Shown here: in pieces, positions 38,459-56,315 of the stretch
How positions within the stretch are numbered: position 1 is the stretch's first letter
How the letters are laid out: each line of letters starts with the position of its first letter
NCBI GenBank assembly: GCA_965219875.1
Contig: CBDCOW010000003.1
Location: 1,002,458-1,066,457 of the forward strand
Length of the DNA stretch: 64,000 nucleotides
Source: Dehalococcoidia bacterium
GTDB taxonomy: Bacteria; Chloroflexota; Dehalococcoidia; SHYB01
Direction of reading: 5' to 3'
Program-made: the position numbers and the translations under genes
Notes under the pieces: generated by a model
What the model was told of the DNA's origin: nothing
The model's input: only the letters and a program-made list of their open reading frames with translations
The model's database searches: none

Positions 38459-39028
38459 GTAAGAGCGATTCGCGACTCGCCCCTGACGCGCGGCCGACCC
38501 CCACGGCCAATATTGCGCGCCGATGATACTTGGCACACCTTGCCTCTCCGCCTCCCACCCCACGACATCGCCCCCTTCCCCATCCCCACCGCCGCCCCCT
38601 ACCATGTCCTTGCATGTCTTAGGCCTACTCAGCCACCGGCGCCGGCTCAGAGGGAAGAGCCGCGCCCCGTGGCGCGGAGCGGCGCCCTCCCTCCGGGAAC
38701 TCCTGCGCTCCTCCCAAGCGCGAGGAGTTTCAAGCGAGGCCGAGGCCGGCCTTGAAGCGGGCGCCCGAGGCCGCGGATGAGACCGCCGGACATGCCGGAG
38801 TTGCAACGTGACGTATGGGAAGATCGCTCGCTACCGTAACCTTTAGTCGAGCCCGCATGAGCGCCTCGCGGCGCGGCCATGCTCCCCATCCGGCACCGCC
38901 CAGCCCCGTGATCGGTAAAAGGTTACCCCCCTTGGCCCCCGTGCGCCCGTCGCCGCCCCCAACCGCGCAAACGAGGGTTGGGGTTGGGGCCGGGGCGGCG
39001 CCGTGCTAGACTCGCTCGCTGCAAGCCC

Positions 39029-39715
39029 ATGCCGAGGACCACGCTCTACGCAAGCCCCGCCGACGCCGTCGCCGACGTCCCCGACGGCGCCAGCATCATG
39101 ATCGCCGGCTTCGGCATGGCGGGGTATCCACAGGCCCTGGTGCTGGCGCTCCGCGACCGGGGCGTCAGGGACCTCACCATCATCTGCAATTCCTGCGGAG
39201 GGACGCGCGCCGACCGGCTCGACCCCGGCATCCTCATCAAGGCCGGCATGGTGCGGAAGGCGATCGTGTCGATCGGCGTCTTGCCCGGCAACTCCGCGCC
39301 CGAGGTCGAGGAGCAGTGGTCGAGGGGCACGCTCGAAATCGAGCTTTCGCCCCAGGGCACGCTTGCCGAGCGCATCCGGGCCGGCGGCGCGGGCATCGGC
39401 GGCTTCTACACCCCCGTGGGCGCGGGGACCGCCGTCGAGGAGGGCAAGGAGAAGCGGGCCATTGGCGGCGTGGAACACCTGCTCGAACTGCCGCTCCGCG
39501 CCGACTACGCCTTCGTCCAGGCGCACCGGGCCGACACGCTGGGCAACCTCGTCTTCCGCCGCACCTCCCGCAACTTCAACCCCATCATGGCGGCGGCCGC
39601 CGACGTCACCATCGCCGAGGTCGAGGCCATCGTCGACCCCGCCGAGATCGACCCCGAGCGCATCGGCGCCGCGGGAGTCTACGTCGACCGCGTCGTCCAG
39701 GCCGACCGCCCCTAG
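39029..39715 (+). CDS. 3-oxoacid CoA-transferase subunit A (ScoA/AtoD-like)
   Basis: IMIAGFGMAGYPQALVLALRDRGVRDLTIICNSCG...ELSPQGTLAERIRAGGAGIGGFYTPVGAGT is the subunit-A signature. ATG 39029. Confidence 0.85.
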   Translation: MPRTTLYASPADAVADVPDGASIMIAGFGMAGYPQALVLALRDRGVRDLTIICNSCGGTRADRLDPGILIKAGMVRKAIVSIGVLPGNSAPEVEEQWSRGTLEIELSPQGTLAERIRAGGAGIGGFYTPVGAGTAVEEGKEKRAIGGVEHLLELPLRADYAFVQAHRADTLGNLVFRRTSRNFNPIMAAAADVTIAEVEAIVDPAEIDPERIGAAGVYVDRVVQADRP

Positions 39716-40374
39716 AGCGACATCTCCGCGACCTCGTCGGCGACGAGCAGATCGGCGCCGGAGACGGCCTGGACTTCCTCCGGCGTCCAGCCCGGCGCGA
39801 CTTCCGCGATCTCCATGCCCCGCGGCGTCAGCCGCAGCACCGCCACGTCGGTGATCAGCACGTCGACGCAGGCGCGGCCCGTGAGCGGCAGCGAACAGGT
39901 CTCGACGACCTTCGGCCTCCCGTCGGACGTGGTATGCGTCATGGTGACGATGACCTTCTTGACCCCGACCACGAGGTCCATCGCGCCGCCCATGCCGCCG
40001 ACCCGGCCCGGTAGGGCCCAACTGGCAAGATCGCCGGCTTGCGACACTTGGAGCGCCCCCAGCACCGCCACGTCCACGCGCCCACCGCGGATCATCGCGA
40101 ACGACTCGGCGTGGTCGAGGAACGAGATGCCCGGCGCTAGCGTCACCGGCTGCCCCATCGCGTTGACGAGGTCCCAGTCGGCCTCCTCGGCGGTGGTGAT
40201 GGCCCCGTAGCCGACGACGCCGTTCTCCGCCTGGAACGTGATCTGCTTCCCTTCGGGGATGTAGTTGGCGGCGAGCGACGGTATCCCGAACCCGAGGTTG
40301 ACGCACATCCCGTCCTCGAGCTCCTTGGCGGCCCGCAGGGCCATCGATTCCTTGTCGAGCCGGAACTTCTCCAC
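39712..40374 (-). CDS. 3-oxoacid CoA-transferase subunit B (ScoB/AtoA-like)
   Basis: AAKELEDGMCVNLGFGIPSLAANYIPEG...QAENGVVGYG...GGMGGAMDLVVGVKKVIVTMTHT with the catalytic Glu region. GTG 40374 (alternative ATG 40344). It is convergent with subunit A, and the two 3' ends overlap by 4 nt. Confidence 0.85.
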   Translation of the reverse strand: MEKFRLDKESMALRAAKELEDGMCVNLGFGIPSLAANYIPEGKQITFQAENGVVGYGAITTAEEADWDLVNAMGQPVTLAPGISFLDHAESFAMIRGGRVDVAVLGALQVSQAGDLASWALPGRVGGMGGAMDLVVGVKKVIVTMTHTTSDGRPKVVETCSLPLTGRACVDVLITDVAVLRLTPRGMEIAEVAPGWTPEEVQAVSGADLLVADEVAEMSL

Positions 40375-40394
40375 TTTGCCACTCCACCGGCGGA

Positions 40395-40500
40395 GACTCT
40401 TGCGTAACCTGTCCGTGAGCGGGCGTCCACAAGGGGCGCCCCTACGGGAAGGGATGGATTCTCGCTTGCGCGGGAATGACGGATGCCCTGCGTTCCAAAG
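40395..40500 (+). repeat. Partial copy of the MITE-like element (TIR GGAGACTCTTGCGTAAC, then an interior matching the 36027 copy in inverted orientation)
   Basis: Sequence identity to 36045..36110 is visible in reverse complement. It sits in the divergent promoter region between scoB and the hydantoinase operon. Confidence 0.5.
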
Positions 40501-40562
40501 CTCTGCACAGATCCCCGGCGGGCTCATTCTACCCCAGCGGCGGTGCCTTTCCGCGGCCCCGA

Positions 40563-40592
40563 TTTCGCATAGCGCGGTGGGTGCGCTACAAT
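40563..40592 (+). promoter_or_regulatory. Candidate promoter TTTCGC - 18 nt - TACAAT upstream of the hydantoinase-like operon
   Basis: The -10 hexamer TACAAT (40587..40592) lies 50 nt upstream of ATG 40643. The -35 is weak. Confidence 0.3.
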
Positions 40593-40642
40593 AGCTGACG
40601 CCCGGCGGGGCGCTGCCTCAGGCTCCCCTGCCTCACCCAACC

Positions 40643-42658
40643 ATGGCGGCGCTGCGCTCCACAGACACCTACACCATCGACGTCGACATCGGCGGGACGT
40701 TCACGGACGGCGTTCTGAGCGATGGTGCGGGCGTCCGGTGGGCCAAGGTCGACACCACCCCCCACGACCTCACGGAGTGCTTCCTGCGCTGCGTCGAGGA
40801 GCTTGCCGCGCTCGCCGGCCTGGACACCGCCGCGCTCCTTGCCCGGTCGTCCGTCATCCGGCTGTCGAGCACCGTCGCGACGAACATGCTGCTCCAGCGG
40901 AACGGGCCCAAGCTGGGCATCATGGTGACCGAGGGCGAGGAGGCGGCGCTCACCGGGGGCGCGGCAGCCGAGCTTTTCGCCGGCATCGTCGATCCCGGCA
41001 TGGTCGCCGGCCTCCCCGAGGCCATGTCTCCGGCGGGCGAGGTCATGCGCGCGCTGGACGAAGCCAACGTCCGGCGGGCGATGGAGCGGTTGCTCGACGA
41101 CGGGGCCAGGGGCATCGTCGTCAGCTTCGACGGCGCTATCGCCAACCCTGCCCACGAGCTCCTGGCGCGCCGGGTCGTGAACGGTGAATACCCACGGCAC
41201 TATCTCGGCTCGGTGCATACCTGGCTGGGGGCCGAGCTCAGCAGTGGCGACGACCCGCTGCGCCGGAACACCGCCATCCTCAACGGCTACCTTCACCGCG
41301 GAGTAGCGACCTCGCTCTACAAGTCGGACGAGTTGCTGCGCCAACGCGGCTTCAAACGACCCCTGCTCGTGGCGCACTCGCGGAGCGGGACGGCGCGCGT
41401 CGCCAAAACCACCGCACTCAACACCTACAACTCCGGCCCCGTGGCCGGTCTCGTGGGCTGCGCCAGGCTCGCGAAGGACCTGTACGGCATCGAAGACCTC
41501 GTCTCCATCGACGTGGGCGGCACCAGCGTCGACATCGGCATCGTCGCCGGCGGCGAGGTGCCCTTCAGCGCCGAGCCCGCGGTCCACGGCATCGCCGTCG
41601 GGACCCCGATGATCGACGTCGAGCCGGTCGGCGGCGGCGGCGGCGGCATCGTGAAGGCCGACGGCGCTTCCGGCGACGTCAGCGTGGGGCCAGAGAGCGC
41701 CGGCGCCCTTCCGGGCCCCGCCTGCTACGGTCTCGGCGGCAACGACCCCACCCTCACCGACGCCGACGTGATCCTGGGCTACATCAACCCCGAGTTCTTC
41801 CTCGGTGGCAAGCGCGCCCTCGACGCGGAGCGCGCCCGCAACGTCTATCAGCGGCGCGTCGCCCGTAGGCTGAACGTCCCCCTCGAAGAGGCCGCCGACC
41901 GCGCCGCGCGTCAAGCCGAGCGCGACGTGGCGGAGCGTCTCGCCGCCGCCCTCGACGCCCGCGGCCTCGACCCCGCCGGCGTCACCATGTTCGCCTTCGG
42001 CGGCGGTGGCGGCCTACGCTGCTGCGGCTACGCCGAGGCGGTGGGCATCCGCAAGATCATCGTCTTCCCCTTCGCCGGCGTGGCCAGCGCCATGGGCGCC
42101 TCTTTCATGGACGTGGCCCACTTCTACGATGCCCCCGTGAACGCCGACCTCGACGGGCCCGACGCCGTGACGCGCTACAACCAGACCATTGCCGGCCTGC
42201 AAGCGCGGGCGGCGCGCGACATGCTCGGCGAGGGCTTTGCCGAGAACGAGATAGCGTTCGAGGCCGAGGCGGTGATCGAGGCGGGCGCCGAGCGGCGAAC
42301 CGTCCCGGCTCCCGTCGAAGTCCAATCGCCGGACGAGCTCCGCGACGGAGCGCCGTCACCCGGTCTGAAACTGCGCTCGGTGACGCTCCGCGCGGCCTGC
42401 AGTACGCCGCGCGTCGCCATCGAGCGCCGCAAGCTCAGTGGGCGCAGTCCCAAGGCGGCGTTGAAAGGCGAGCGTGAAGTCTATCGGAACGGCGCATTCA
42501 CCCCGTCGAAGGTCTACGCCGCCGACCGGCTGAAGCCGGGGAACGCCGTCGAGGGTCCCGCGATCGTCGAGGCCGCCGACAGCACCGTCGTCGCGCCCGC
42601 CGGCTGGACCTACACCGTCGACGCCTTCGGCAACGGTGTGCTGGAGCGGGCATCGTGA
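40643..42658 (+). CDS. Hydantoinase A / oxoprolinase (HyuA) family ATPase subunit, copy 1 (acetone/acetophenone carboxylase beta-like)
   Basis: N-terminal TIDVDIGGTFTDGVL and the second ATPase motif LVSIDVGGTSVDIGIV match the Hydantoinase_A/ASKHA fold. Confidence 0.9.
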   Translation: MAALRSTDTYTIDVDIGGTFTDGVLSDGAGVRWAKVDTTPHDLTECFLRCVEELAALAGLDTAALLARSSVIRLSSTVATNMLLQRNGPKLGIMVTEGEEAALTGGAAAELFAGIVDPGMVAGLPEAMSPAGEVMRALDEANVRRAMERLLDDGARGIVVSFDGAIANPAHELLARRVVNGEYPRHYLGSVHTWLGAELSSGDDPLRRNTAILNGYLHRGVATSLYKSDELLRQRGFKRPLLVAHSRSGTARVAKTTALNTYNSGPVAGLVGCARLAKDLYGIEDLVSIDVGGTSVDIGIVAGGEVPFSAEPAVHGIAVGTPMIDVEPVGGGGGGIVKADGASGDVSVGPESAGALPGPACYGLGGNDPTLTDADVILGYINPEFFLGGKRALDAERARNVYQRRVARRLNVPLEEAADRAARQAERDVAERLAAALDARGLDPAGVTMFAFGGGGGLRCCGYAEAVGIRKIIVFPFAGVASAMGASFMDVAHFYDAPVNADLDGPDAVTRYNQTIAGLQARAARDMLGEGFAENEIAFEAEAVIEAGAERRTVPAPVEVQSPDELRDGAPSPGLKLRSVTLRAACSTPRVAIERRKLSGRSPKAALKGEREVYRNGAFTPSKVYAADRLKPGNAVEGPAIVEAADSTVVAPAGWTYTVDAFGNGVLERAS

Positions 42659-43011
42659 AGGTCCGCATCACCGAATATCTCGACATCGACCTCGAACGGG
42701 AGCAGTGGACCTGCAACCGCTGCGACCGCGAACTCGGTCCGGCGCGCGAGAACTACAAGGAGTTCATGCTCGTCTACCAGCGCGACCCCAAGACGGTGCA
42801 CCACCCCCATCTCGACCCGAAGGAGCACCGCTACACGATGAGCTCCGACAAGGAGTGGGTGGGCATCCTCGAGTTCTACTGCCCCGGCTGCGCCGCGATG
42901 GTCGAGGTCGAATACCTGCCCCCCGGCCATCCGGTCACGCGGGACATCGAGCTCGACATCGACGCGCTGAAGCACAAGCACCTCGGCGGAGAGGGCGGCG
43001 CGGCGTCGTGA
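42655..43011 (+). CDS. Small Cys4 zinc-binding subunit, acetone-carboxylase gamma (AcxC)-like
   Basis: 118 aa with CNRCDRE...CPGCAAM. Translationally coupled on both sides (ATGA at 42655, GTGA at 43008) between two HyuA-like genes. The gamma-subunit assignment is from memory. Confidence 0.55.
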   Translation: MKVRITEYLDIDLEREQWTCNRCDRELGPARENYKEFMLVYQRDPKTVHHPHLDPKEHRYTMSSDKEWVGILEFYCPGCAAMVEVEYLPPGHPVTRDIELDIDALKHKHLGGEGGAAS

Positions 43012-45140
43012 GCTTAACCATCGACATCGACATCGGCGGTACGTTCACCGACTGCGTGCTCGTCGGGCCGCGGGGCATCATGCGCAGCAAGACCCCCACG
43101 ACGGCCTACGACCTGAGCGTCGGCTTCCGCCGCGGCATCGAAGACCTCGCCCTGCAGGTCGACCTTTCCTCTGAAGAGCTGATCGAGCAGTCGAACGTCA
43201 TCCGTTACTCGACGACGAGCGGACTTAACACGCTGCTGCAGCGCACCGGCCCCAAGCTGGGACTCATCACTACCACCGGCCACGAGCACGTCCTCATCAT
43301 CGGACGGTCGCGGCAGTGGGCCGACGGCCTGCCCGTGCAGGAGCGGCGCCTGCTCCACAAGGCGATGAAGCCCGAGCCGCTGATCACGCTCGACATGACC
43401 GTCGGCATACGCGAGCGCATCGACATGAACGGGAACGTGATAGTCCCGATCGACCGCGAGGACGTCCGCCGGAAGGTGCAGCACCTCGTCGATCAGGGCG
43501 CGCAGGGCTTCATTGTCTCCCTGCTGTGGTCCTTCCGGAACCCCGAGCACGAGCGCACGGTGCGCGAGGTCATCGAGGAGGAGTACCCCGGCTACTACCT
43601 CGGCGCGATGCCGATCATCCTCTCCAGCGACGTGCAGCCCAAGCGCCATGAGTACCCTCGGACGAACGTCGCCGTGCTCAGCGGCTACCTCCACCGCGAC
43701 ATGAGCGAGCAGCTCTCCCTGCTCACCGAGCAACTGCGCGACTACGGCTACCGCAAGCCGCTCTATCTGCTGAACAACATCGGCGGCGTCACCAAGGTCC
43801 CCCGCACCCGCGCCATCGACACCTTCGGCGCGGGCCCCGTTGCCGGCCTGATGGCCGGCGCCCACCTCTCGCGCATCTACGACCTGCCCCGCGTCCTCGT
43901 GACCGACATGGGCGGAACCAGCTTCGACTACGGCATGGTCATCGACGGCCAATGCCAGTCCTACGTCGATTGGCCCGTCATCGACCGCTGGGCCACCGAG
44001 AACACCATGCTCGAGGTGAGCTCCATCGGCGCGGGCGGCGGCTCGGTGGCGTGGGTCAACGAGGCCTTGGGCGGCAGATTCGAAGTCGGCCCCAAGAGCG
44101 CCGGATCGAACCCCGGCCCGGCCTGCTACGACCTCGGCGGCGACGAGCCCACGGTCGCCGACGCCGACGTCGTCCTCGGCTTCCTCAACCCCGACAACTT
44201 CCTCGGCGGCAGAATGTCCCTTAACCGCGAGAAGGCGGTGCAGGCGATGGAGCACCTCGGCAAGCCCCTCGGGGCCTCGCCCGAGGAGGCGGCGGCGATG
44301 GTCAAGGAGATCATCGACGCGAAGATGGGCAACATCATCGTCAAGGAGATCTCGCTCAAGGGCCACGCCGCCGGCGACTTCGTCCTCTTCGCCTACGGCG
44401 GCGCGGGGCCGACGCATTGCGCCGGCTACAACGAGCTGCTCAAGGCGCCCAAGATCATGACCTTCCCCCACGCCAGCGTCTTCTGCGCGCTCGGCGGCGC
44501 GATCATGGACTTCCGGCAGCGCTACGAGGCGTCCCGCCAGGTGACGATGTTCGACCCCGCGAACTCGGACCCCTATCTGGAAGACGTCGACGATTTCAAC
44601 CGCGCCGTCGGCGCCCTCCGCTCCATAGCTATCCAGGACGTGCGCGGCGAGGGCTTCGAGCCGGAGCAGGCGGTCTTCGAGCTCGAAATGGACATGTCCT
44701 ACGCCCGGCAGCACAACGTGATGCGGGTGCGCTCACCGGTCGTCACGCTGGAATCGGCGGACGACGTGCGCGCCATCTGCGACGCCTACACCCGGACCTA
44801 CGTCAACCGCTACACGGAGGCGGCGCTGGAGCCGGGCTCGCCCATCATCATTCACAACTTCTACCTCTTCGCCACCGCGCCGCTAGAGAAGCCGCGTCTG
44901 CCCACCTACCCGCCCGCCGGCGAGGATCCCGGCGCCGCGCATCTCGGCGAGCGCCAGGTCTACTGGCCCGACGCCAAGGGCCGACTGGCGACGAGCATCT
45001 ACGACGCCGACCGGCTCGCACCGGGGAACCTGGTGCGCGGCCCTGCCATCGTCGAGGCGCCGGACACCACCGTCGTCATCCCCCACGAGATGACCTACAG
45101 CCTCGACGAATATCTCACCGGAATCCTGGAGCAGCGCTAA
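43008..45140 (+). CDS. Hydantoinase A (HyuA) family ATPase subunit, copy 2
   Basis: VSLTIDIDIGGTFTDCVL...VLVTDMGGTSFDYGMV. GTG start overlapping the upstream TGA. Confidence 0.85.
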   Translation: MSLTIDIDIGGTFTDCVLVGPRGIMRSKTPTTAYDLSVGFRRGIEDLALQVDLSSEELIEQSNVIRYSTTSGLNTLLQRTGPKLGLITTTGHEHVLIIGRSRQWADGLPVQERRLLHKAMKPEPLITLDMTVGIRERIDMNGNVIVPIDREDVRRKVQHLVDQGAQGFIVSLLWSFRNPEHERTVREVIEEEYPGYYLGAMPIILSSDVQPKRHEYPRTNVAVLSGYLHRDMSEQLSLLTEQLRDYGYRKPLYLLNNIGGVTKVPRTRAIDTFGAGPVAGLMAGAHLSRIYDLPRVLVTDMGGTSFDYGMVIDGQCQSYVDWPVIDRWATENTMLEVSSIGAGGGSVAWVNEALGGRFEVGPKSAGSNPGPACYDLGGDEPTVADADVVLGFLNPDNFLGGRMSLNREKAVQAMEHLGKPLGASPEEAAAMVKEIIDAKMGNIIVKEISLKGHAAGDFVLFAYGGAGPTHCAGYNELLKAPKIMTFPHASVFCALGGAIMDFRQRYEASRQVTMFDPANSDPYLEDVDDFNRAVGALRSIAIQDVRGEGFEPEQAVFELEMDMSYARQHNVMRVRSPVVTLESADDVRAICDAYTRTYVNRYTEAALEPGSPIIIHNFYLFATAPLEKPRLPTYPPAGEDPGAAHLGERQVYWPDAKGRLATSIYDADRLAPGNLVRGPAIVEAPDTTVVIPHEMTYSLDEYLTGILEQR

Positions 45141-45145
45141 CAGCC

Positions 45146-47209
45146 ATGCCGGTAGACCGCGACGTCCTCGACCAAATCGGACTCGAACCCGCCACCCAAG
45201 CGGAGCTTGACGCCGCCGCCGCCATCTCCCCGAGCGAGTTCTCCGTCTATATGACGCGCATGGAACTGCTCTGCGAGGAGATGAAGCAGAACCTCGTCAA
45301 CATGGGCTTCGCCCCGCACCTTGAGCTTTCCGACTGCATCGTGCCGATCTTCTCGGCGAAGGGCGACCTCGTGCTCGGCTCCGGCGGCACCTATCTTCAC
45401 GCCGCGACGGGCGCCATCCCCGTCAAGTACATGCTCAAGCACTTCGCCGACGACCCCTCCGTGGGGATTCGAGACGGCGACCTCTTCCTCTGCAACGAGC
45501 CGATCTACGGCGGTATTCACCTTCCCGACTTCATCACCTTCATTCCCATCTTCTTCGAAGGCGAGATCATCGCGTGGGGCGCGGCCTGCAACCACGAGCC
45601 CGAGGTCGGCGGCGGCGAGCCGGGAGGCTACACGCCGGCGGCGCGGTCGAGGTTCGAGGAAGGGCTCCACGTGACGCCGGTGAAGATCGCCGAGAACTTC
45701 ACCCTCAAGAACGACGTCGCGGAGATGATGGCCTTCATGGTCCGGGACGAGCGCATGTTCATGGGCGACATGCGCGCCCGCATGGCCACGTGCATGAAGC
45801 TGCGCGAGCGCATCATCGAGCTGTGCGAAGAGAAGGGCAAGGACTTCGTCGTCGGGCTCATCCGCAAGGTGCTCGACACGGTTTCCGACTCCGCCAAGGA
45901 GCGCGTCCGCTCCATGAACGACGGCGTCTACCGCACCGCCTACTTCTTCGACACCATCGGCGGCATCGAGCACGCCCTCAACGTGGCGCACATCGCGATC
46001 GAGAAGAAGGACGACACCATCACCGTCGACTTGACCGGCACGTCGCCGCCCACGGGCACGGCGATGAACGCGAAGCCCCACATGGTCAGGGCCCTGCTCG
46101 CGGCGGACCTGATGCAGTACTTCTTTTCCGACCTGCCGGTCAGCGCCGCCGTCCTCCAGCCGCTGAAAATCATCGCGCCGGAGAACACCTGGGCCAACCC
46201 GCCCGACGAGGACGCGATCTCCACCAATCTCCGCCTCCTCGGTCCGGTCACCAACTACATGCACACCTGCTTCGTGAAGATGATGTTCGATAGCCCCTAC
46301 CGCGACTACATCATCACCCCCATCGGCACCGGGGGCGGCCAGGGCCACTTCCAGGCCGGCGGACGCGACCAGTACGGGCGCGTCTTCGGCTACACCCGCA
46401 TCGAGGTCTCCAACGCCTCGGGCAACGGCGCCACCGTGGAGCGCGACGGCATGGACGCCGGCGTCTTCTGGTACGCCGGCTTCGGTGACTCCCGCGACAT
46501 CGAGTGGGTCGAGACCCGCTACCCCTACCTCGCGCTCTTCCGGACCCTCATGACCGACCAGGCCGGCTACGGCAAGTACCGCGGCGGCGACGGCGTGGGC
46601 ATCACCTACATCGTCCACGGCGCTTCCTCGCCGCTCCGCATCATCCACGCCAACAGCATGACCCAGTTCTCGGCGGAGCCCGGCATCATGGGCGGCTACG
46701 CCGGCGGCAACGCACCGTTCCTCGAAATCCGGGGGACGCCGTGGCGCGAGCTCTTCCACGACCCCAGCGTCACGTTGCCGCGCACCTTCCACGACATGCT
46801 CGACGCCCAAGACCTAATCCCCTCGTACCCCACCCAGATCAGCTTCACCGAGCTGTTCGCCAACGGCGACGCCGTCGGCTCCGTGGGGCACTCCGCCGGC
46901 GGCTACGGCGACCCTCTCGAACGGGACCTCGAGGCCGTCGCGATCGACGTCAAGCAGGGCATCTGCTCCGAGTGGACGGCGCGGCAGGTCTATCACGTCG
47001 CCTTCGACGAGGTCACCGGCTTGGTGGACGAGAAGAAGACCGCCCGCCTGCGCGCCGCCGAGCGCGCCGCCCGCCTGAAGCGCGGCAAGCCTTACCACGA
47101 GTTCCTGAAGGGCTGGGAGAAAAAGCAGCCGCCCCAGGAATACATGCACCGGTACGGCCCCTGGCCGTGGGCCGTGACCGGCGCCCCGCCCGCCGACGGC
47201 GCCCCGTAG
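45146..47209 (+). CDS. Hydantoinase B / oxoprolinase (HyuB) family catalytic subunit (acetone carboxylase alpha-like)
   Basis: 687 aa at Hydantoinase_B length with conserved blocks (DLFLCNEPIYGGIHLPD, GGYAGGNAPF). ATG 45146 lies 5 nt after the upstream TAA. Confidence 0.9.
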   Translation: MPVDRDVLDQIGLEPATQAELDAAAAISPSEFSVYMTRMELLCEEMKQNLVNMGFAPHLELSDCIVPIFSAKGDLVLGSGGTYLHAATGAIPVKYMLKHFADDPSVGIRDGDLFLCNEPIYGGIHLPDFITFIPIFFEGEIIAWGAACNHEPEVGGGEPGGYTPAARSRFEEGLHVTPVKIAENFTLKNDVAEMMAFMVRDERMFMGDMRARMATCMKLRERIIELCEEKGKDFVVGLIRKVLDTVSDSAKERVRSMNDGVYRTAYFFDTIGGIEHALNVAHIAIEKKDDTITVDLTGTSPPTGTAMNAKPHMVRALLAADLMQYFFSDLPVSAAVLQPLKIIAPENTWANPPDEDAISTNLRLLGPVTNYMHTCFVKMMFDSPYRDYIITPIGTGGGQGHFQAGGRDQYGRVFGYTRIEVSNASGNGATVERDGMDAGVFWYAGFGDSRDIEWVETRYPYLALFRTLMTDQAGYGKYRGGDGVGITYIVHGASSPLRIIHANSMTQFSAEPGIMGGYAGGNAPFLEIRGTPWRELFHDPSVTLPRTFHDMLDAQDLIPSYPTQISFTELFANGDAVGSVGHSAGGYGDPLERDLEAVAIDVKQGICSEWTARQVYHVAFDEVTGLVDEKKTARLRAAERAARLKRGKPYHEFLKGWEKKQPPQEYMHRYGPWPWAVTGAPPADGAP

Positions 47210-47211
47210 CC

Positions 47212-48159
47212 GTGCCCACGTCCCGCGAGCGGTTCCGCGCCGTGTTCGACGGCAAAGCCGACCGCCCCCCGTTCATCCCGCTCATGGCCGCCGCCGCGGC
47301 GCGCCTGATGCAAGCGCCGCTCCGCGACGCCTACGGCTACCCGGCGGTTATGGCGAAGACGCTGCGGGACTGCCAAGCCCTCTTCGGCTACGACGCCGTC
47401 GTCGTCTTCCCCGACCTCACGCTCGGCGCGGAGGCCCTGGGCTGCACACTGGAGTGGCCTGACGACGGCCCGCCGGTCGTCGCCCAAAGCCTCGCCTCGT
47501 TCGAGGCGCTCGACGCGCTGACCGTGGGGAGCATGGCCGCCGGCGGACGGATGCCGGCGGCGCTCGACGCGGCCGGCCAGCTTGTCGAGACCATTGGGCG
47601 CGGATGCGCGGTCCTCGGCGCGGTCACCGGCCCCGTTACCCTGGCCCGGCTCGCCTTCTCATCGCCGTCTTTTCTCGAAGGAGCGGACGGCACCCGCGCC
47701 ATTGAGCGGCTCGCCGCGGAAAGCCTGACCGTGGCACGGGCCTTCTTCGAGCGGCGCGTCGACGGCGTGGTCGTGCTCGAGCCCGATTTGGCCGAAGCGC
47801 CGCCCGCCGTCCACGACGCATTCACCAAGGCCTTCCGCACCATCCACAACCTGGCACAGTTCTACGACGGCCGCCTACTCCTCGCGGCGCGCGGCCCCGC
47901 GCCCATCGCCGCATCCCTCGACGCCGACGGCCTGAGCCTCGGCGGCTTGGACTTGGGGACACAGGTCGCGGGGGCGAAGCGCGGGCAGGCGCGTGGCGCC
48001 CTTATCTCAGCCGACGCGTGGAGCGACAACCTCGAAGAGACCGTCCGCACCATCGCCGACGATGCCGACGGCAGCCTCTACCTCACCACCGACGGCGAGG
48101 TCCCCCACGACACCCCCGCCGACAGCCTCCACGACGTCATGGACGCCCTCGAAGGGTGA
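47212..48159 (+). CDS. Uroporphyrinogen-decarboxylase (URO-D) superfamily protein (MtaA/CmuA-like fold), coupled to the hydantoinase operon
   Basis: N-terminus SRERFRAVFDGKADRPPFIPLMAAAAARLMQ (ERF..A..G...DR.P) is typical of URO-D/methylcobamide-methyltransferase-like proteins. GTG 47212 lies 2 nt after the HyuB stop. Confidence 0.6.
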   Translation: MPTSRERFRAVFDGKADRPPFIPLMAAAAARLMQAPLRDAYGYPAVMAKTLRDCQALFGYDAVVVFPDLTLGAEALGCTLEWPDDGPPVVAQSLASFEALDALTVGSMAAGGRMPAALDAAGQLVETIGRGCAVLGAVTGPVTLARLAFSSPSFLEGADGTRAIERLAAESLTVARAFFERRVDGVVVLEPDLAEAPPAVHDAFTKAFRTIHNLAQFYDGRLLLAARGPAPIAASLDADGLSLGGLDLGTQVAGAKRGQARGALISADAWSDNLEETVRTIADDADGSLYLTTDGEVPHDTPADSLHDVMDALEG

Positions 48160-48169: not shown

Positions 48170-48300
48170 ATGTATCGCTATATGAAACCTCGCCGGAGCC
48201 TCCCGTCGGGGCGCTCCTCGTGGGCGCCCTCTCCTCCGGCCCCCTCTCCCGCCGGGAGAGGGTTGGGGTGAGGGCGGGGGGTGGCGGGGCGCGCCAAGGT
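48170..48300 (+). repeat. GC-rich structured intergenic repeat (related hairpin modules GGGCGCCC and CCCTCTCCC-gcc-GGGAGAGGG; no family TIR)
   Basis: Shares hairpin modules with the MITE-like family but lacks GGAGACCTTTGCGTAAC. It precedes a sharp drop in GC. Confidence 0.4.
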
Positions 48301-48333
48301 AGACGAAGCGCGCCCATTCATGAAAGCCAGCTA

Positions 48334-48837
48334 GTGGATGCTGTTCTGGTGAAAAACGCCGATCGGATGATGACGATCGCCAACCTGTTGGAGGATGGCG
48401 TCGAGCTAGGTTTCGCAGATGGGCGAAGGGGCCTCGTCCCCTTCGCCGACATTCCCGAGATCAAGGAACGCGCGGGCTTGGCCGGCCTTGAGTTGCCCAA
48501 CCCCTACGAGATGGTCCTCACAACGGCCCAAGGCGAGCGCATCGAGATTCCCTGGGACTTCGCCCGCCACTACTGTGACGAGTCCTACAGGCCAACCGTC
48601 GAGGCGCTCGCCATGCGGGGAAGACAGACGCTTGGCGAACGCATCCGCCATTTCAGGGAGACAGCCGAGCTAACTCAGGATGCCCTTGCCCGCTCAGCGG
48701 CTATCGGACGGGTCACTCTCGTTCGGATCGAGCATGGGGAACAGTCCCCTAGATTCAAGACGCTGACCGCAATCGCCCAAGCCCTAGGACGACCCGTCCA
48801 AGACTTGCTCTTAGAAGAAGGTCTCCATGTCCGTTAG
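48334..48837 (+). CDS. Transcriptional regulator: DUF2442-like N-domain + C-terminal XRE-family HTH
   Basis: C-terminus LGERIRHFRETAELTQDALARSAAIGRVTLVRIEHGEQSPRFKTLTAIAQALG is a Cro/C1 HTH. GTG 48334 or ATG 48367. It lies in a low-GC segment. Confidence 0.55.
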   Translation: MDAVLVKNADRMMTIANLLEDGVELGFADGRRGLVPFADIPEIKERAGLAGLELPNPYEMVLTTAQGERIEIPWDFARHYCDESYRPTVEALAMRGRQTLGERIRHFRETAELTQDALARSAAIGRVTLVRIEHGEQSPRFKTLTAIAQALGRPVQDLLLEEGLHVR

Positions 48838-49471
48838 TCAAACCCTCATCGTGTTTGACCATGACGGCACATTGGTGGACTCTTCTAGGATTCTCTATCA
48901 GGCCTACCGGCATGTAGCGGAGGTGTATGGACTACCAACACCCCTCTACTCGGACGTGACTAGTTCCATCGGTTGCGATGATCAGTTCACCCTTCTTTTC
49001 GGATCCAATAGACCTGAGTACGTCGACACATTCCTCGACTTCTATTACGCCCACCATCTCAGCTTAGTAAGACCGTTCGATGGAATTGCCACCCTTCTCA
49101 ATGATCTCCGCAAAGGAGGATACAAGTTGGGTGTGGTGTCAAATAAATTGAGGAAGGCAGGGTTGGCCGAGTTGCGTGAGTGCGGCTTGTCATCCTATTT
49201 CGACAAGACCATTTACAGAGAAGATGTGGACCGAGGAAAGCCGGATCCGGAGGGAATTCACCTGCTTCACGAGCAACTCGGTGTCCAGCCTCCAAACGTT
49301 GTACTCGTAGGGGACACGGAGGTCGACGTGCAGTGCGCTAAGAACGCAGGCATCAGAAGCATCGCTGCTCTCTGGGGCTATGGCGACAAGTTGCGGCTCG
49401 CCTCTCTGCGCCCTGACGCGTCAAGTCGCTCGCCTGCTGATGTCAGCAGAGCCTTGGCGGCACTGTTCTAG
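48827..49471 (+). CDS. HAD-superfamily hydrolase (phosphoglycolate-phosphatase-like)
   Basis: Motif I VFDHDGTLVDS, motif II VVSNK, motif III/IV K...GDTEVDVQCAKNAG. About 52% GC versus ~68% in flanking DNA. Confidence 0.8.
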   Translation: MSVSQTLIVFDHDGTLVDSSRILYQAYRHVAEVYGLPTPLYSDVTSSIGCDDQFTLLFGSNRPEYVDTFLDFYYAHHLSLVRPFDGIATLLNDLRKGGYKLGVVSNKLRKAGLAELRECGLSSYFDKTIYREDVDRGKPDPEGIHLLHEQLGVQPPNVVLVGDTEVDVQCAKNAGIRSIAALWGYGDKLRLASLRPDASSRSPADVSRALAALF

Positions 49472-49506: not shown

Positions 49507-50718
49507 CTACACGATCATGATGTCGCGGGTGAGGGTGCCCGACAGGTCGACCGGGGCGTCCTTCTTGATGAGATAGGTGTCTTCGAGCTGCATGCCGCCG
49601 AAGCCCATCTCGAAGAAGGGCGACTCGAAGTTGATCGTCATGTCCTCTTCGAGGGTGAAGTCGCCGTGGGGGTACCAGCACCACTGCTCGTAGAGCTCGA
49701 GGCCGATCACGTGGAACATGCAGAGGCCCTTGCCGGTGACGTAGTCCGGGCAGCCGTTCTTCTGGATTGCCTCGACGGCGATGCGGCAGACCTCCGAGGC
49801 GCTGGCGCCGGGGCGCATGGCCTCCATCGCCGCCTCGCGGCCCACGAGCATGGCCTGGTAGTACTGCTTGGCCTTGGCACTCGGCTCCCCAATTGAGCAT
49901 GTCCGGCCCAGGTCGGTCCAGTAGCGCTCATACGTCCCCTCGAAGTCGAAGCGAATGAGGTCGCCGGGCTGAATCTGGTAGCTCTCGTAGTCCTGGCGCT
50001 GGAAGAGGGCCATGCCCATCCTCCCCACGCCGCTGATGCGCGAGGGCACGCTCCGCATCGCGTTCTCCTTGGCCAGGCGAATGTCGTGTTGGATGAGCGC
50101 CTCGTTGAACGGCGCACCCTCTCGCAGGGCGATCACCACGTCCTCGATGCCGCGGAGGTTTGCCTCGTTCGCCTTGCGGATGATCTCGATCTCGTGCGCC
50201 GACTTCACCGAGCGGATGTGGCGGAAGGTCTGAATCACGTCCACGTAGCTGCCCGTGAAGGCGCCCGTGCGTTCGAGCTGCTGCGCCACACGCACGTCGT
50301 CGAAGCCCAAGTAGGCGTTGGTGAGGCCCAAGTCGGAGATCGTGTCGCCCAACGCCTCCATCCGGTCTTCGTAGTTCTTCTTGCGGCCCTCCTCGAACGC
50401 GGCGAGGTAGCGCTCTTCCGCGGGCATCGGCTTGTAGTCGGAGGTCGGCGGCACGGGCTCGACCTCGCGCCCCACCGTCCGCAGCGCCGGCTTGAAGTCG
50501 GGGTCGCGCCACACGAAGGGCAGCTCGTGATTAGCGATGATCAGTGTGATTTCGCCCGCCTCGTCGCTGGGGACGATGGCGAACGGCCCGCCGCCCCACA
50601 GGTGTGCGTCAGAGCCCCAGCCCGCCGCGTAGTTGAAGTTCGGCCCCCCGCTCAGGACGGCGGCTTCGACGCCGAGCTCCTGTAGGTGGCTGGCGGTGCG
50701 CTCTCGGTTTATCAGCAT
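49507..50718 (-). CDS. M24 family metallopeptidase (creatinase/Xaa-Pro aminopeptidase-like)
   Basis: Creatinase_N-like N-domain plus pita-bread domain with metal ligands (DLIRFDFEG..., HVIGLELYE, EEDMTINFESPF). Confidence 0.85.
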   Translation of the reverse strand: MLINRERTASHLQELGVEAAVLSGGPNFNYAAGWGSDAHLWGGGPFAIVPSDEAGEITLIIANHELPFVWRDPDFKPALRTVGREVEPVPPTSDYKPMPAEERYLAAFEEGRKKNYEDRMEALGDTISDLGLTNAYLGFDDVRVAQQLERTGAFTGSYVDVIQTFRHIRSVKSAHEIEIIRKANEANLRGIEDVVIALREGAPFNEALIQHDIRLAKENAMRSVPSRISGVGRMGMALFQRQDYESYQIQPGDLIRFDFEGTYERYWTDLGRTCSIGEPSAKAKQYYQAMLVGREAAMEAMRPGASASEVCRIAVEAIQKNGCPDYVTGKGLCMFHVIGLELYEQWCWYPHGDFTLEEDMTINFESPFFEMGFGGMQLEDTYLIKKDAPVDLSGTLTRDIMIV

Positions 50719-50752: not shown

Positions 50753-52162
50753 CTATGAGGGAATCGCGACGACGTCGATTTCCAGTTGCAATTCTGGGTA
50801 GGGACCGATCTCGTCGGCCCCGATCACCGTCGTCGGCGGTATCTTGCCGTCGTAGATGACCCTAGCGACGCGCTCCAGGGCGGCGAGCTTCGATACGTCG
50901 ACCAGGTAGAGCACCTGATGCACCACCCTCGATATATCCGATCCCGCCTCTTTCAGCAGCCTCTGGTAGGTGCGGTAGATGTGCCATGCCTGGCACATCA
51001 TCGTTTCCGATTCAGGGTCGTCGTAGTGCGCCAGGCCCATGAGCTTGCCGTGGTCGCGCAGTTGGTCGAACGTCACGATGGGGAAGTTTGCCTGGTCGCG
51101 CCCCGAGTAGCCGGTGAGGAAGATGAGCGGCCCTGCCTGCTGCGTCATCGGGATCGGCCCGCTGACGATCTCGGGGTAGGTCTTGCCGACCTTCTCCCAC
51201 TCGCCGCCGGGGACGACGGCCACCGAGTCCATCACCCCCATCGCGTCGGGGTCGCCGCTCAGACGCCCCGCGCCCATGGTGAAGCCGGTGATCGTGGGCG
51301 CCGTTCCCGGGTCCGGGTTGTCGAACGCGTAGAGCGGTACGAAGACGCCGACGTCCACCATCCCCACGCTGGTGCAGAGGTTGTAGCGCAGCATGTCGGT
51401 CAACGACGCGCCCTGGCTCTCAAGCAGCCGCTTTGAGTTGGAGCGGACCAACGCCATCTGCGCCTTGAATGCTTCGAGCGACACGTCGATGTGGTAGCTG
51501 CCGCTCGTCAGGAACGCGGACCCTTCGTCGTTCACTTCGGCGAGCCGGGTGGGCACTCGGCCCGTCTCCGGGTCCACGCCGTAGAGCCCGGAGGTGAAGA
51601 GCAGGTCGCCGACGCGGACCCCCTGCGGGTACGGAGGGCAGACCTTTTCGAGTCCAGGCACGTGCACCGCGGTAGTGGTCAGGCCGCCTTCCTCCGGCAC
51701 GATCGCGACGACCTCGACGATGATGCGGTAGTCGTCGTGGTAGCCGTTGTCGGTCATGCGAGCGATGGTCGTCGCCGGCTTCTCGCCGGGGAAGAAGGAC
51801 TGCATCACCCGCTCGGCGTTGCGGATGTCGCGCCAGTCGGTGAGGTACAGCCGCTGCCGGACGACGTGTTCGAGCGACGAGCCCTGCGATTCCAGGATGT
51901 GCGACAGGTTCTGGTAGACCTGCCACGTCTGGGCGTTGATCGGGCCCTCGCGCCCGTCGCCGTGGACGCCCCACGACCGGAGCCCCTCGATCGCGTCCTC
52001 GGGGAGATCGGGGAGCTTCCGGATGACCTTGCCTGTCTCCGGGTTCCGGGGCGTCTGCCCCGAGAGAAAGAGAAACTGCCCGGCTCGGGTCCCGGTAGGG
52101 GCTGCGCCCAAACTCTCAAGCTCGGCGGGGAACCAGAAGTCTTGACGGTCCAAGATACGCAC
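50753..52162 (-). CDS. Triple tandem RidA/YjgF-domain fusion protein (single-chain pseudo-trimer)
   Basis: Three successive ~150-aa RidA-like modules: LFLSGQTP...LYLTDWRDI; LLFTSGLYGVDPETG...YNLCTSVGM; LIFLTGYSGRD...YLVDVSKLAA...TTVIGADEIGP. Confidence 0.7.
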   Translation of the reverse strand: MRILDRQDFWFPAELESLGAAPTGTRAGQFLFLSGQTPRNPETGKVIRKLPDLPEDAIEGLRSWGVHGDGREGPINAQTWQVYQNLSHILESQGSSLEHVVRQRLYLTDWRDIRNAERVMQSFFPGEKPATTIARMTDNGYHDDYRIIVEVVAIVPEEGGLTTTAVHVPGLEKVCPPYPQGVRVGDLLFTSGLYGVDPETGRVPTRLAEVNDEGSAFLTSGSYHIDVSLEAFKAQMALVRSNSKRLLESQGASLTDMLRYNLCTSVGMVDVGVFVPLYAFDNPDPGTAPTITGFTMGAGRLSGDPDAMGVMDSVAVVPGGEWEKVGKTYPEIVSGPIPMTQQAGPLIFLTGYSGRDQANFPIVTFDQLRDHGKLMGLAHYDDPESETMMCQAWHIYRTYQRLLKEAGSDISRVVHQVLYLVDVSKLAALERVARVIYDGKIPPTTVIGADEIGPYPELQLEIDVVAIPS

Positions 52163-52267: not shown

Positions 52268-53134
52268 CTAGCGAAGGAACGGCAGGATCACGTCCGCGAT
52301 GCGCCGGGGCTCGAACTCGATCACCTCGGCGCCGGTGTCCTCCAGCGTCGCCAGCGCGCCGTCGCCGAGCCGCTCCACGACCGCCGCGCCCTGCCTCCCC
52401 AGGTGCGCCTCGTCCGCCTTCGCCAGCTCGATCACCAGCGTCGGATTCGGAATGCGCCGCACCGCCTCGCCGAAGTCGAACGAGAAGTTGGCCTCGTAGA
52501 GCGGGCCCAGGCCGGCGCGGGCCTGGAGGAAGTCGATGGCGCGGGCTTCGAGCACCCCCAGCGTCTCGGCTGAAAGCCCCCGCGACGACATCGCGCGTTC
52601 GTGCCACCAGATGCCGGTCAGATTGGTGAAGCCCGCGGCCCAGTCGGCGAGCAGCCCCGCCGCCTCCGATTCGGCTTCCGCGGTGAAGTACCGGTCGACG
52701 ATGGCGTGGATGGCGGCGTCGCGGGCCTCTTTCGTCACGACGATGCTATGCGTCTCGCCGCACAAGACCAGCTTCGCGACGCGGTCGGGCCATCCCGCGG
52801 CGAGCGCGGCCCCGATCTTGTTTCCCGTATGCACCCCGAAGACGTGCGCCCGCTCGATCCCGACCACGTCGAGGAAGCCGGTAACGCTGCGCGCCAGATC
52901 GTGCATCGTCACCGCAGGCGGCAACGGATTGGAGCCGCCCGACCCCAGCGTGTCGAGCGCCAAGACCCGGCGCTCCTCGGCCAGCAGGGGCATGAGACCC
53001 GCGTAGACTCGCGACGACCGGGGGCTGGCGTGGAGCAGCACGAGCGGCGTGGTGTCCCCACCGCCTTCCTCGGCGTAGTGCATCTCTCCCATCGGTGTCG
53101 CCGCGTAGGCGTGCTTCAACGGCGTGCTCCTCAA
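52268..53134 (-). CDS. Alpha/beta-hydrolase fold protein (unusual H-T-G at the nucleophile-elbow position)
   Basis: LVLLHASPRSSRVY...VFGVHTGNKIG. Paralogue of 58057..58908. Confidence 0.75.
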   Translation of the reverse strand: MRSTPLKHAYAATPMGEMHYAEEGGGDTTPLVLLHASPRSSRVYAGLMPLLAEERRVLALDTLGSGGSNPLPPAVTMHDLARSVTGFLDVVGIERAHVFGVHTGNKIGAALAAGWPDRVAKLVLCGETHSIVVTKEARDAAIHAIVDRYFTAEAESEAAGLLADWAAGFTNLTGIWWHERAMSSRGLSAETLGVLEARAIDFLQARAGLGPLYEANFSFDFGEAVRRIPNPTLVIELAKADEAHLGRQGAAVVERLGDGALATLEDTGAEVIEFEPRRIADVILPFLR

Positions 53135-53599: not shown

Positions 53600-54280
53600 C
53601 TATAGCCCCAAGATGCTCCGCACTTCGGTCACGCGGTCAATGACGTGGTCCGGGGGCCGCAGACCCGCCGGGTAATCCCGGCGCCGCCTGATCCAGGCGG
53701 CCTGCATGCCGAAGCGTTTGGCCCCGTCGACGTCGGCCGTTGGGTTGTCGCCAACAAACAGGGCTCGTTCCGGAGCCGTGAGTCCGGCCGCTCGGAGCGC
53801 ATCCCGGAATATCCTCTGGTCGGGTTTCTCATAGCCGGCCTCTTCGGAGACGATGATGAACGGCGCGAGCCGGTCGAGGCCCGCCCCCCTGCATTTGCCG
53901 CGCTGCCGACTCGTATCGCCATTCGTGACAATGCCCCAGGGCATCCCACGCTCGGTGAGTTCAGCGAGCATGGCGTTGACCTCCGCATCCGGCCTCGCGA
54001 GGTGGTCCATCGCCGAGCCGTACCACGCCGCCACCGATTCGTCATCCAAGCCGGTGTTGGGCCACTCGTTGAGCCATCGCCTGCGCGTCGCTTGGCGGGC
54101 TCCGTAGCCGTCCTCGTCCCAGAGGACCATCAACTCGACCGCCTCGTTCCGCGTCACGGAATGCCCGGCGGCGAGGTACTCGTCGTAGAAGGCCTCCGCC
54201 ACACTCTGGAACAAGGCCTCCCTATCGAGGAGGGTGTTGTCGAGGTCGAAGATCACGGCTTCGACCGGGGTCGCGTCCAA
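53600..54280 (-). CDS. HAD-superfamily hydrolase
   Basis: IFDLDNTLLD (motif I), VTNGD (II), K...GDNPTADVDGAKRFG (III/IV). Confidence 0.8.
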   Translation of the reverse strand: MDATPVEAVIFDLDNTLLDREALFQSVAEAFYDEYLAAGHSVTRNEAVELMVLWDEDGYGARQATRRRWLNEWPNTGLDDESVAAWYGSAMDHLARPDAEVNAMLAELTERGMPWGIVTNGDTSRQRGKCRGAGLDRLAPFIIVSEEAGYEKPDQRIFRDALRAAGLTAPERALFVGDNPTADVDGAKRFGMQAAWIRRRRDYPAGLRPPDHVIDRVTEVRSILGL

Positions 54281-54309
54281 CGTCGGCTTCAGTCCTTTCG
54301 CCGCGGCGC

Positions 54310-56082: not shown

Positions 56083-56099
56083 GATGGCCTCCCGAAGGC

Positions 56100-56138
56100 A
56101 CGCCGCCGATTATACTGTCCCCGCCATGGCCGACGCGC
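56100..56138 (+). repeat. 39-bp direct repeat copy 1 (ACGCCGCCGATTATACTGTCCCCGCCATGGCCGACGCGC)
   Basis: Identical to 56277..56315. Contains a TATACT -10-like hexamer and the first five codons (MADA.) of the dehalogenase gene. Confidence 0.7.
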
Positions 56139-56276
56139 TTGGCCGTCGATGAATGCGACAGTGTGCAAAAAAACACCCGCCCAGGGACATGGCCGAAACC
56201 ACGATCCAGCGGGCGGGGAGGAAGTCAACTCACCCTAGCATTCGAGGAGCGCTGCGGCAAGATCACTCCTCGGGGT

Positions 56277-56315
56277 ACGCCGCCGATTATACTGTCCCCG
56301 CCATGGCCGACGCGC
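56277..56315 (+). repeat. 39-bp direct repeat copy 2 (contains dehalogenase start codon)
   Basis: Perfect identity to copy 1, 177 bp downstream. Confidence 0.7.

Follow-up and report, generated by a model that had tools for sequence, protein, structure and literature searches.

An acetophenone-carboxylase-like five-gene operon with a URO-D-fold epsilon subunit in an uncultured Dehalococcoidia bacterium

In Aromatoleum aromaticum, acetophenone carboxylase (Apc) is encoded by an operon with the gene order apcABCD(E), in which apcE lies directly after apcD and codes for the epsilon protein, the fifth and essential subunit of the enzyme (PMC5214803 section 7; PMC4729919). The Aromatoleum apc operon runs on into bal, the gene for a benzoylacetate-CoA ligase (PMC4729919). 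Members of the Apc branch can be recognised by the gene order apcABCD(E), clustering with Apc, the lengths of the subunits and a set of signature motifs (PMC5214803, section 7; Weidenweber et al. 2017). Here, we describe a locus in a stretch of 64,000 nucleotides (the window; contig CBDCOW010000003.1) from an uncultured member of the Dehalococcoidia (Chloroflexota), in which five tightly packed plus-strand genes at positions 40643-48159 form one operon. Judged by homology, motifs and gene order, this locus is an Apc-type (acetophenone-carboxylase-like) operon with an architecture that is ordinary for that type. By analogy with Apc, it probably codes for a five-subunit (alpha' gamma alpha beta epsilon), biotin-independent and ATP-dependent ketone carboxylase, which would convert a ketone to a beta-keto acid that is subsequently activated by ScoAB, a 3-oxoacid CoA-transferase encoded next to the operon; we put the probability of this assignment at about 0.72.

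Core subunits and layout of the operon

The first and third genes code for HyuA-type proteins of 671 and 710 amino acids (aa), both of which contain the Pfam domains Hydant_A_N, Hydantoinase_A and Hydant_A_C, while the 118-aa product of the second gene matches Acetone_carb_G (6.6e-33) and the 687-aa product of the fourth gene matches Hydantoinase_B (2.6e-88). The best NCBIfam matches of these four core proteins are ApcA, ApcB, ApcC and ApcD, in gene order and over their full length, and the top PDB matches of all four are chains of the Apc core complex of A. aromaticum (5L9W). The 671-aa protein reaches 422 bits with the ApcA family and 7.8e-105 with the ApcA chain of 5L9W, full-length in both cases, and is 36.8% identical to 5l9w_b over 646 positions. 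For the 118-aa protein, the ApcB family gives 144 bits and 5l9w_C 4.6e-35 (52.9% identity), compared with only 7e-5 for the gamma subunit of acetone carboxylase (Acx). The 710-aa protein matches the ApcC family with 726 bits and 5l9w_B with 1e-203 (46.4% identity over 699 positions), and the 687-aa protein matches 5l9w_A with 1.1e-122 (35.2% identity), as against 1e-49 for Acx and 2e-37 for a hydantoinase. When scored with HMMER against PDB chains, the 710-aa protein obtains 682 bits for Apc, 346 for Acx and 291 for the hydantoinase/5-oxoprolinase/caprolactamase group (Hyd), the 687-aa protein 414, 172 and 132 bits, and the 118-aa protein 124 bits for Apc and 26 for Acx; overall, the chains of Acx, of 5-oxoprolinase/caprolactamase-type enzymes and of N-methylhydantoinase score two- to five-fold below those of Apc.

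Both HyuA-type proteins carry the PHOSPHATE1, PHOSPHATE2 and ADENOSINE motifs, namely DIGGTFTD, DVGGTS and GALPGP in the 671-aa protein and DIGGTFTD, DMGGTS and GSNPGP in the 710-aa protein. The R/KERiDsxG fingerprint is present as RERIDMNG in the 710-aa protein only and absent from the 671-aa protein, which identifies the former as the alpha and the latter as the alpha' subunit. The four cysteines of the gamma subunit (C20, C23, C76 and C79) are invariant across 23 homologues. The beta subunit is similar in length to ApcD (687 versus 684 aa), compared with 776 aa in Acx and 581 aa in Hyd, and the gamma subunit, with 118 aa, is of the short type as in ApcB (129 aa) and not of the Acx type (168 aa). 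All four features that characterise the Apc branch (PMC5214803) are thus found in the operon.

Two other identities were considered for the operon and rejected. An Acx identity disagrees with the scores and with the subunit composition, since there are two HyuA-type genes, an epsilon gene and a gamma subunit of 118 aa. A Hyd identity (hydantoinase, 5-oxoprolinase or caprolactamase) disagrees with the presence of gamma, alpha' and epsilon, with the 687-aa beta subunit and with the scores for 6yra and 7hk5, which are well below those for Apc. A functional variant of the latter would be an ATP-dependent ring-opening amidohydrolase of the hydantoinase, oxoprolinase or caprolactamase type, which acts on a lactam or N-heterocycle and whose product is processed by the M24, RidA and hydrolase proteins encoded downstream. 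The HyuA and HyuB domains, the secondary NCBIfam matches of the core proteins to the caprolactamase subunits CapA and CapB, the conserved downstream genes for an M24 protein, a double-RidA protein and a RutD/PcaD-like hydrolase, and a nearby NCS2 permease gene are all in keeping with such an enzyme. We nevertheless regard it as quite improbable: the characterised hydrolases of the family consist of alpha and beta subunits only, with a beta subunit of about 580 aa (PMC5214803 section 7), whereas the operon has alpha', gamma and epsilon as well, each of them conserved; Hyd-type scores are 2-3 times below Apc scores; and the M24, RidA and hydrolase genes lie on the opposite strand and are conserved among close relatives only.

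The five reading frames have a GC content at third codon positions of 0.78-0.90 in a genome of 65-70% GC, which together with the full-length profile matches excludes chance open reading frames (ORFs). The first two junctions are both GTGA overlaps, in which a GTG start overlaps a TGA stop codon (42655-42658 and 43008-43011); alpha and beta are separated by a 5-nt gap, and beta and epsilon by a 2-nt gap. An initial annotation made from the sequence had described this five-gene anatomy accurately with respect to ORFs, domains, gene order and the two gaps, and erred only in reporting an ATGA junction; its view that acetophenone carboxylase is a closer parallel to the enzyme than hydantoinases or 5-oxoprolinase is borne out by the NCBIfam and PDB scores and by the motifs. 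Public gene calls made independently for a relative with 95% identity (locus L085) contain products of 710, 687 and 315 aa, and the exact 315-aa epsilon product is already on public record. The closest genome locus is located on the Dehalococcoidia chromosome OZ253453.1 (3.58 Mb), a metagenome-assembled genome (MAG), with 97% identity for gamma and 98% for alpha. In L085 (3431-5800), alpha' and gamma are called as a single product of 789 aa (671+118 aa), which may reflect either a genuine gene fusion at the GTGA overlap or an indel from long-read sequencing; the same contig also has a scoA shortened to 99 aa.

The URO-D-like epsilon subunit

The fifth product, a protein of 315 aa, matches the Pfam family URO-D with 1.8e-20 in its N-terminal half only. 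Used as a single sequence, it scores higher with MtaA/CmuA than with ApcE, both in NCBIfam (58 bits versus 40 bits, the latter with 3.4e-10) and in the PDB, where MtaA (4ay7) is found with 1.4e-9 and 9fou_A with 2.6e-7; entry 9FOU, released on 2025-12-24, is entitled "acetophenone carboxylase epsilon subunit". An AlphaFold2 model of the protein (predicted local distance difference test score 91.5) is a (beta/alpha)8 barrel, for which Foldseek returns MtaA with a template modelling (TM) score of 0.83, uroporphyrinogen decarboxylase (UROD) with a TM-score of about 0.8 and ApcE (9FOU) with 0.69-0.77 at a probability of 1.00. The single-sequence scores, MtaA as the best structural match, the retained signature Asp of the superfamily and a locus (L001) that keeps the epsilon gene after loss of most of the operon could all be taken to mean that the URO-D-like protein is an independent enzyme, either a decarboxylase or a corrinoid/zinc methyltransferase, that acts on the product of a four-subunit carboxylase.

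That it acts on its own is, however, very improbable. A family profile built from the ORFs that follow beta in related loci matches 9fou_A with 1.3e-39 over the full length (residues 21-302 of 303), whereas MtaA is matched with 3.7e-23 in the N-terminal half only and UROD with 8e-6 or weaker, so that the profile favours ApcE over MtaA by 16 orders of magnitude. The zinc ligands H-x-C of MtaA are replaced by A and R (LHICG aligned with LAARG), and no conserved His or Cys was found in epsilon family alignments of 25 and 45 members. In an hhalign comparison with HemE, only the Asp of the F-S-D signature is kept (D68); other residues take the place of the Tyr and of the His of the NLGHG motif, and the arginine motif near the HemE N-terminus (RQAGR) does not align with epsilon. 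With zinc ligands replaced, no conserved His or Cys, and the His and Tyr of UROD lost, epsilon is neither a canonical MtaA nor a canonical UROD, and its scores for the respective NCBIfam models are far below the cut-offs (TIGR01463, MtaA/CmuA: 58 bits, cut-off 235; TIGR01464, HemE: 25 bits, cut-off 303). Furthermore, there is no corrinoid protein gene nearby, the placement of the gene right after beta is tight and phylum-spanning, and ApcE is needed for Apc activity (PMC5214803). On the strength of the family profile and the predicted fold, the 315-aa protein is assigned as an ApcE homologue, and ApcE itself as a member of the URO-D/MtaA fold superfamily. A literature search that combined acetophenone carboxylase with uroporphyrinogen decarboxylase, and that also covered a cryo-EM or 9FOU paper, found nothing.

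To survey the operon across genomes, a gamma-subunit alignment was scanned against one genome per GTDB species, which yielded at least 571 loci with an Apc-type gamma subunit, 80 of which were kept; the order alpha'-gamma-alpha-beta is nearly universal among them. Counting was restricted to 59 loci in which the beta gene and at least 1 kb of downstream sequence are present (two loci had been fetched through epsilon homologues). An epsilon-like ORF immediately follows beta in 42/59 loci and is found anywhere in the locus in 46/59. Among 5,569 six-frame ORFs of 82 loci, profile matches occur 45 times adjacent to beta and only 4 times elsewhere. Strong matches come from the branch to which both the window and genuine Apc belong (Chloroflexota, Acidobacteriota, Actinomycetota and Clostridia), and remote or weak ones (27-190 bits, iterated profile) from a second branch of mostly Proteobacteria and some Solirubrobacterales. 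Searching a sequence library with epsilon gave 263 representatives of 50%-identity clusters at E<=1e-30 and 848 at E<=1e-10. The co-occurrence of the URO-D gene with Hyu-type operons, which the initial annotation had proposed to examine, is thereby confirmed; its statement that the enzyme family has no known partner of the URO-D type is contradicted by ApcE (9FOU match, PMC5214803, PMC4729919), and the proposed four-subunit enzyme coupled to a separate URO-D protein gives way to a five-subunit enzyme of the Apc type. The combination it had named as speaking against its own view, subunits within hydantoinase or oxoprolinase clades and a URO-D gene that is not conserved beside them, is not what was found, as Apc scores best and the URO-D gene is conserved. 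Since the conserved adjacency is the known Apc architecture, it does not represent a new coupling, and a false lead is removed: the URO-D-like gene encodes the epsilon subunit of a known enzyme type and not an unprecedented partner.

The second, large branch (L007-L010, L014, L017, L025, L033, L035, L049, L063, L068, L069 and L080) shares the order alpha'-gamma-alpha-beta. Its beta subunits are longer (~745 aa), its alpha pocket reads T(I/V)HPI(Y/H)L, and its fifth gene is shorter and codes for a protein of ~270-290 aa, which is linked to the epsilon family by the iterated profile only (46-157 bits). This branch seems to represent an uncharacterised sister type among the Apc-like enzymes. The position of epsilon varies in some loci: it is placed between gamma and alpha in L048 (3534-4460), next to an additional alpha' copy on the opposite strand in L057 (136-3271) and 1.4 kb downstream of beta in L070 (16000-17049), and the order is gamma-alpha-beta-epsilon-alpha' in L027 (10001-17541). 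In the metagenomic contig L001 (8504-10882), which lacks the alpha', gamma and alpha genes, scoA is directly followed by a C-terminal fragment of beta (309 bits) and then by an epsilon gene that is intact (49% identical). Either a deletion has left epsilon behind, or a noisy long-read assembly has produced an artefact.

Epsilon evolves far faster than the core: compared with L004, alpha is 85% and epsilon 51% identical, and compared with L012 the values are 62% and 38%. This agrees with a comment in the literature that epsilon has diverged far more in sequence than the other Apc subunits. Together, the residue losses and the fast evolution constrain ideas on the role of epsilon. Apc-type operons with epsilon are widespread in Chloroflexota, Acidobacteriota, Actinomycetota, Clostridia and Proteobacteria, and a single enzyme stands characterised among them.

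Proposed reaction and substrate

Working from homology, motif conservation, synteny and co-occurrence, we infer the chemistry and substrate of the enzyme, and what epsilon contributes, by analogy with Apc. The alpha subunit would phosphorylate the enol form of the ketone (PMC5214803 sections 5-6), and alpha' would phosphorylate bicarbonate to carboxyphosphate, with two ATP used in total. A beta dimer and the Zn-Cys4 protein gamma would provide the scaffold, on which epsilon may dock transiently once the complex is closed and would be required for coupling the two half-reactions. The presumed product, a beta-keto acid, would be released and converted by ScoAB to a beta-ketoacyl-CoA for thiolysis, so that ScoAB would take the role that benzoylacetate-CoA ligase (Bal) has in Aromatoleum. 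CoA-activating enzymes are encoded beside Apc-type operons in three lineages: Bal in Aromatoleum, AMP-forming ligases and a thiolase in Acidobacteria, where a TetR regulator and an amidohydrolase also flank the operons, and ScoAB in the window and in L003, L004, L005 and L085. That the activating enzyme differs from lineage to lineage fits a beta-keto-acid product each time. The earlier suggestion that the enzyme feeds into the neighbouring CoA-transferase is plausible.

Several observations weigh against an Apc-type ketone carboxylase that cooperates with ScoAB. All five proteins remain far below the NCBIfam equivalog cut-offs (score/cut-off in gene order: 422/1250, 144/250, 726/1500, 429/1500 and 40/450 bits), and only one Apc has ever been characterised (PMC5214803), none from the subclade of the window. 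The putative acetophenone pocket of alpha comprises seven residues (Apc-alpha L81, F281, N282, P285, I333, Q344 and T345), four of which are kept in the window (L81, F281, P285 and I333) and three exchanged (N282G, Q344E and T345V); in the putative bicarbonate pocket of alpha' (E248, D274 and K281), one of three residues is kept, next to E248N and K281D. Both pockets are only tentative in PMC5214803. Linkage to ScoAB is confined to close relatives, with alpha identities of 85% or more, and differs in the sister group L016, where purF, purM, purH and a PNPOx-like gene are the neighbours and give no clue to the substrate; in view of these purine-biosynthesis neighbours, the ScoAB link could be inherited synteny. 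Moreover, the neighbouring M24, RidA and hydrolase genes and the nucleobase-type permease could point to nitrogen-compound metabolism.

Part of these observations bears on whether the operon encodes a true functional orthologue of Apc, which would convert acetophenone, or close aryl methyl ketones, to benzoylacetate for activation by ScoAB. The architecture is the same, Apc is the best match for all subunits, the hydrophobic alpha pocket retains four of its residues, and a Rieske oxygenase and other aromatic-type catabolic genes occur within the window. For comparison, the Apc subunit sequences were taken from PDB alignments and the 9FOU sequence was rebuilt from HMMER alignments; epsilon is ~21-23% identical to that of A. 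aromaticum, and besides the scores under the equivalog cut-offs the rounded identities of alpha (46%) and beta (35%) argue against orthology. In a neighbour-joining tree of alpha, from which Acx and Hyd sequences were left out, the window sequence clusters with MAGs of Dehalococcoidia and Chloroflexia (L003, L004 and L006, then L012, L013, L016 and L019) next to actinobacterial loci, whereas genuine ApcC groups with Acidobacteria and Thermogemmatispora (about 60% identity); both belong to the same major branch and to different subclades. Apc has the alpha pocket LFNPIQT and most other members of its subclade have (L/M)FNPI(K/Q)T, as opposed to LFGPIEV in the window and (L/M)FGPIEV when seven related Chloroflexota-clade loci are included; the triad of polar residues in alpha' is EDK in the Apc subclade and NDD in the window and its subclade. 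In addition, no bal ligase, ethylbenzene dehydrogenase or 1-phenylethanol dehydrogenase gene is adjacent. A functional orthologue of Apc is therefore rather unlikely, and judged by scores and tree position the operon is not a strict orthologue. The pocket changes suggest a different substrate or a different detail of the mechanism, and because the window belongs to a Chloroflexota subclade of its own with both putative pockets changed, the substrate is probably not acetophenone itself.

The Apc-type ketone carboxylase remains the preferred assignment, and the remaining value of the locus lies in which substrate the Chloroflexota subclade uses and in what the URO-D-fold epsilon does; the pocket signatures of the subclades offer a rational way to choose candidates for new ketone-carboxylase specificities. 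It is tempting to speculate that epsilon could be the actual site where CO2, derived from carboxyphosphate, meets the enol phosphate, with the URO-D fold being run in the carboxylating direction instead of serving as a passive clamp, and jointly that the Chloroflexota subclade might have a new, possibly non-aromatic, ketone specificity, with which uncultured Dehalococcoidia would channel recalcitrant ketones via ScoAB into their CoA metabolism. This combined idea is doubtful; the fast-evolving epsilon has a decarboxylase fold, and of the superfamily signature only the Asp (D68) is left in it.

Neighbouring genes and comparison with known systems

The features of the locus and its surroundings are listed in Table 1. 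Partner subunit genes are usually co-directional. Here, scoB is divergent from the apc-like operon and convergent with scoA, with a 4-nt overlap of the stop codons, and this convergent arrangement is kept in L003, L004, L005 and L085. The start of scoB is a GTG at 40374, which gives a product of 220 aa, as called in relatives.

Table 1. Features of the apc-like locus and of its flanking regions (positions refer to the window).
Feature	Position	Strand	Description
scoA	38978-39715	+	3-oxoacid CoA-transferase subunit A; TIGR02429 231 bits, cut-off 128.5
scoB	39712-40374	-	3-oxoacid CoA-transferase subunit B; TIGR02428 275 bits, cut-off 243.55
Divergent spacer scoB/apcA-like	40375-40642	.	268 bp; sigma-70-like site on + strand
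apcA-like (alpha')	40643-42658	+	671 aa; HyuA/ASKHA-type, putative bicarbonate kinase
apcB-like (gamma)	42655-43011	+	118 aa; Cys4 zinc protein, short Apc type
apcC-like (alpha)	43008-45140	+	710 aa; HyuA-type, putative ketone kinase
apcD-like (beta)	45146-47209	+	687 aa; HyuB-type, glycine-rich segments
apcE-like (epsilon)	47212-48159	+	315 aa; GTG start, URO-D/MtaA-fold TIM barrel
XRE-family helix-turn-helix (HTH) protein	48367-48837 (probable extent)	+	Pfam HTH_31, HTH_3; directly downstream of apcE
HAD phosphatase	48827-49471		between HTH and M24 genes
M24 metallopeptidase-like (creatinase/prolidase-like)	49507-50718	-	Pfam/NCBIfam
Protein with two RidA/L-PSP domains	50753-52162	-	469 aa; Pfam/NCBIfam
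Alpha/beta hydrolase (PcaD/RutD-like)	52268-53134	-	Pfam/NCBIfam

The divergent spacer contains a promoter-like sequence, TTCGCA-17 nt-TACAAT (40564-40592, plus strand), about 50 nt upstream of the apcA-like ATG. It is the sole such site in 38.5-50 kb, where 1.0 would be expected by chance. The orthologous spacers of the window, L085, L003 and L004 are otherwise divergent, and all four share TACAATA and the TTC of the -35 element without change. The left ~125 bp of the spacer (40375-40500) are shared with L085 and absent from the spacers of L003 and L004, and the conserved TTC...TACAATA falls into the shared right part. No inverted-repeat operator was found in the 268-bp spacer, and no convincing intrinsic terminator was found after apcE.

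Downstream of apcE, the HTH protein could be a local regulator; a 156-aa HTH protein is called in L085 and L003 but not in L004 or L002. The HTH and HAD phosphatase genes lie in a segment (48220-49471) with a GC dip (0.61 versus about 0.70) that looks like a variable insertion: the HTH gene alone occurs in L003 and L085, and both genes are missing from L002 and L004. The trio of M24, double-RidA and hydrolase genes, on the strand opposite to the operon, follows apcE in L002, L003, L004 and L085 and is absent in L016, and in close relatives the double-RidA gene is always flanked by the M24 and hydrolase genes. A Rut-like pyrimidine pathway composed of RidA, alpha/beta hydrolase, NCS2 permease and luciferase-like monooxygenase was considered and rejected, as all scores fall far short of the Rut equivalog cut-offs and the genes are spread over both strands.

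At 1-30000 and 54000-64000, the window is dense in catabolic paralogues. These include several alpha/beta hydrolases, acyl-CoA dehydrogenases, the Rieske oxygenase, an amidase, a luciferase-like monooxygenase, an 896-aa tandem family-III CoA-transferase protein (21047-23737) and, at 60868-62040, a second gene of the M24/creatinase-like type; this gene mix recalls SAR202-type Chloroflexota. A 3-kb low-GC stretch (26900-29968; 0.55-0.59 versus about 0.66) contains ORFs without a Pfam match, one of which encodes 340 aa (28016-29038, minus strand), abuts tRNA-Ala(TGC) (29893-29968, minus strand) and may be a small integrated island.

Of the described systems, ApcABCDE of A. aromaticum EbN1 (core 5L9W, epsilon 9FOU) is the closest. 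The order alpha'-gamma-alpha-beta-epsilon is identical, the genes are translationally coupled in the same way, and the subunits are of similar size, with 671/118/710/687/315 aa in the window and 658/129/732/684/~293 aa in EbN1. Both systems have a Cys4 gamma subunit, ASKHA motifs in both alpha-type subunits, R/KERiDsxG in alpha only, an epsilon subunit with the URO-D fold and an adjoining gene for a CoA-activating enzyme. In contrast to EbN1, the window has the family-I CoA-transferase ScoAB in place of the Bal ligase, lacks ethylbenzene-pathway genes and carries its operon in a separate Chloroflexota subclade. MtaA/CmuA and uroporphyrinogen decarboxylase (PF01208) share with epsilon the fold, similarity in the N-terminal half and the F-x-D...EA-x-G motif; however, epsilon lacks the H-x-C...C zinc site of MtaA as well as the His and Tyr of UROD, and its genomic context is the apc operon and not haem synthesis or methyl transfer. 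AcxABC of Xanthobacter autotrophicus and A. aromaticum (5M45, 5SVB) is built from homologous HyuA-type, HyuB-type and Cys4 subunits and likewise catalyses an ATP-dependent, biotin-independent carboxylation of a ketone, whose beta-keto-acid product is activated to a CoA thioester. Unlike the operon described here, Acx has three subunits without alpha' and epsilon, a different gene order, a HyuB-type subunit of 776 aa and a gamma subunit of 168 aa, and the scores of the window proteins for Acx are about half of those for Apc or less.

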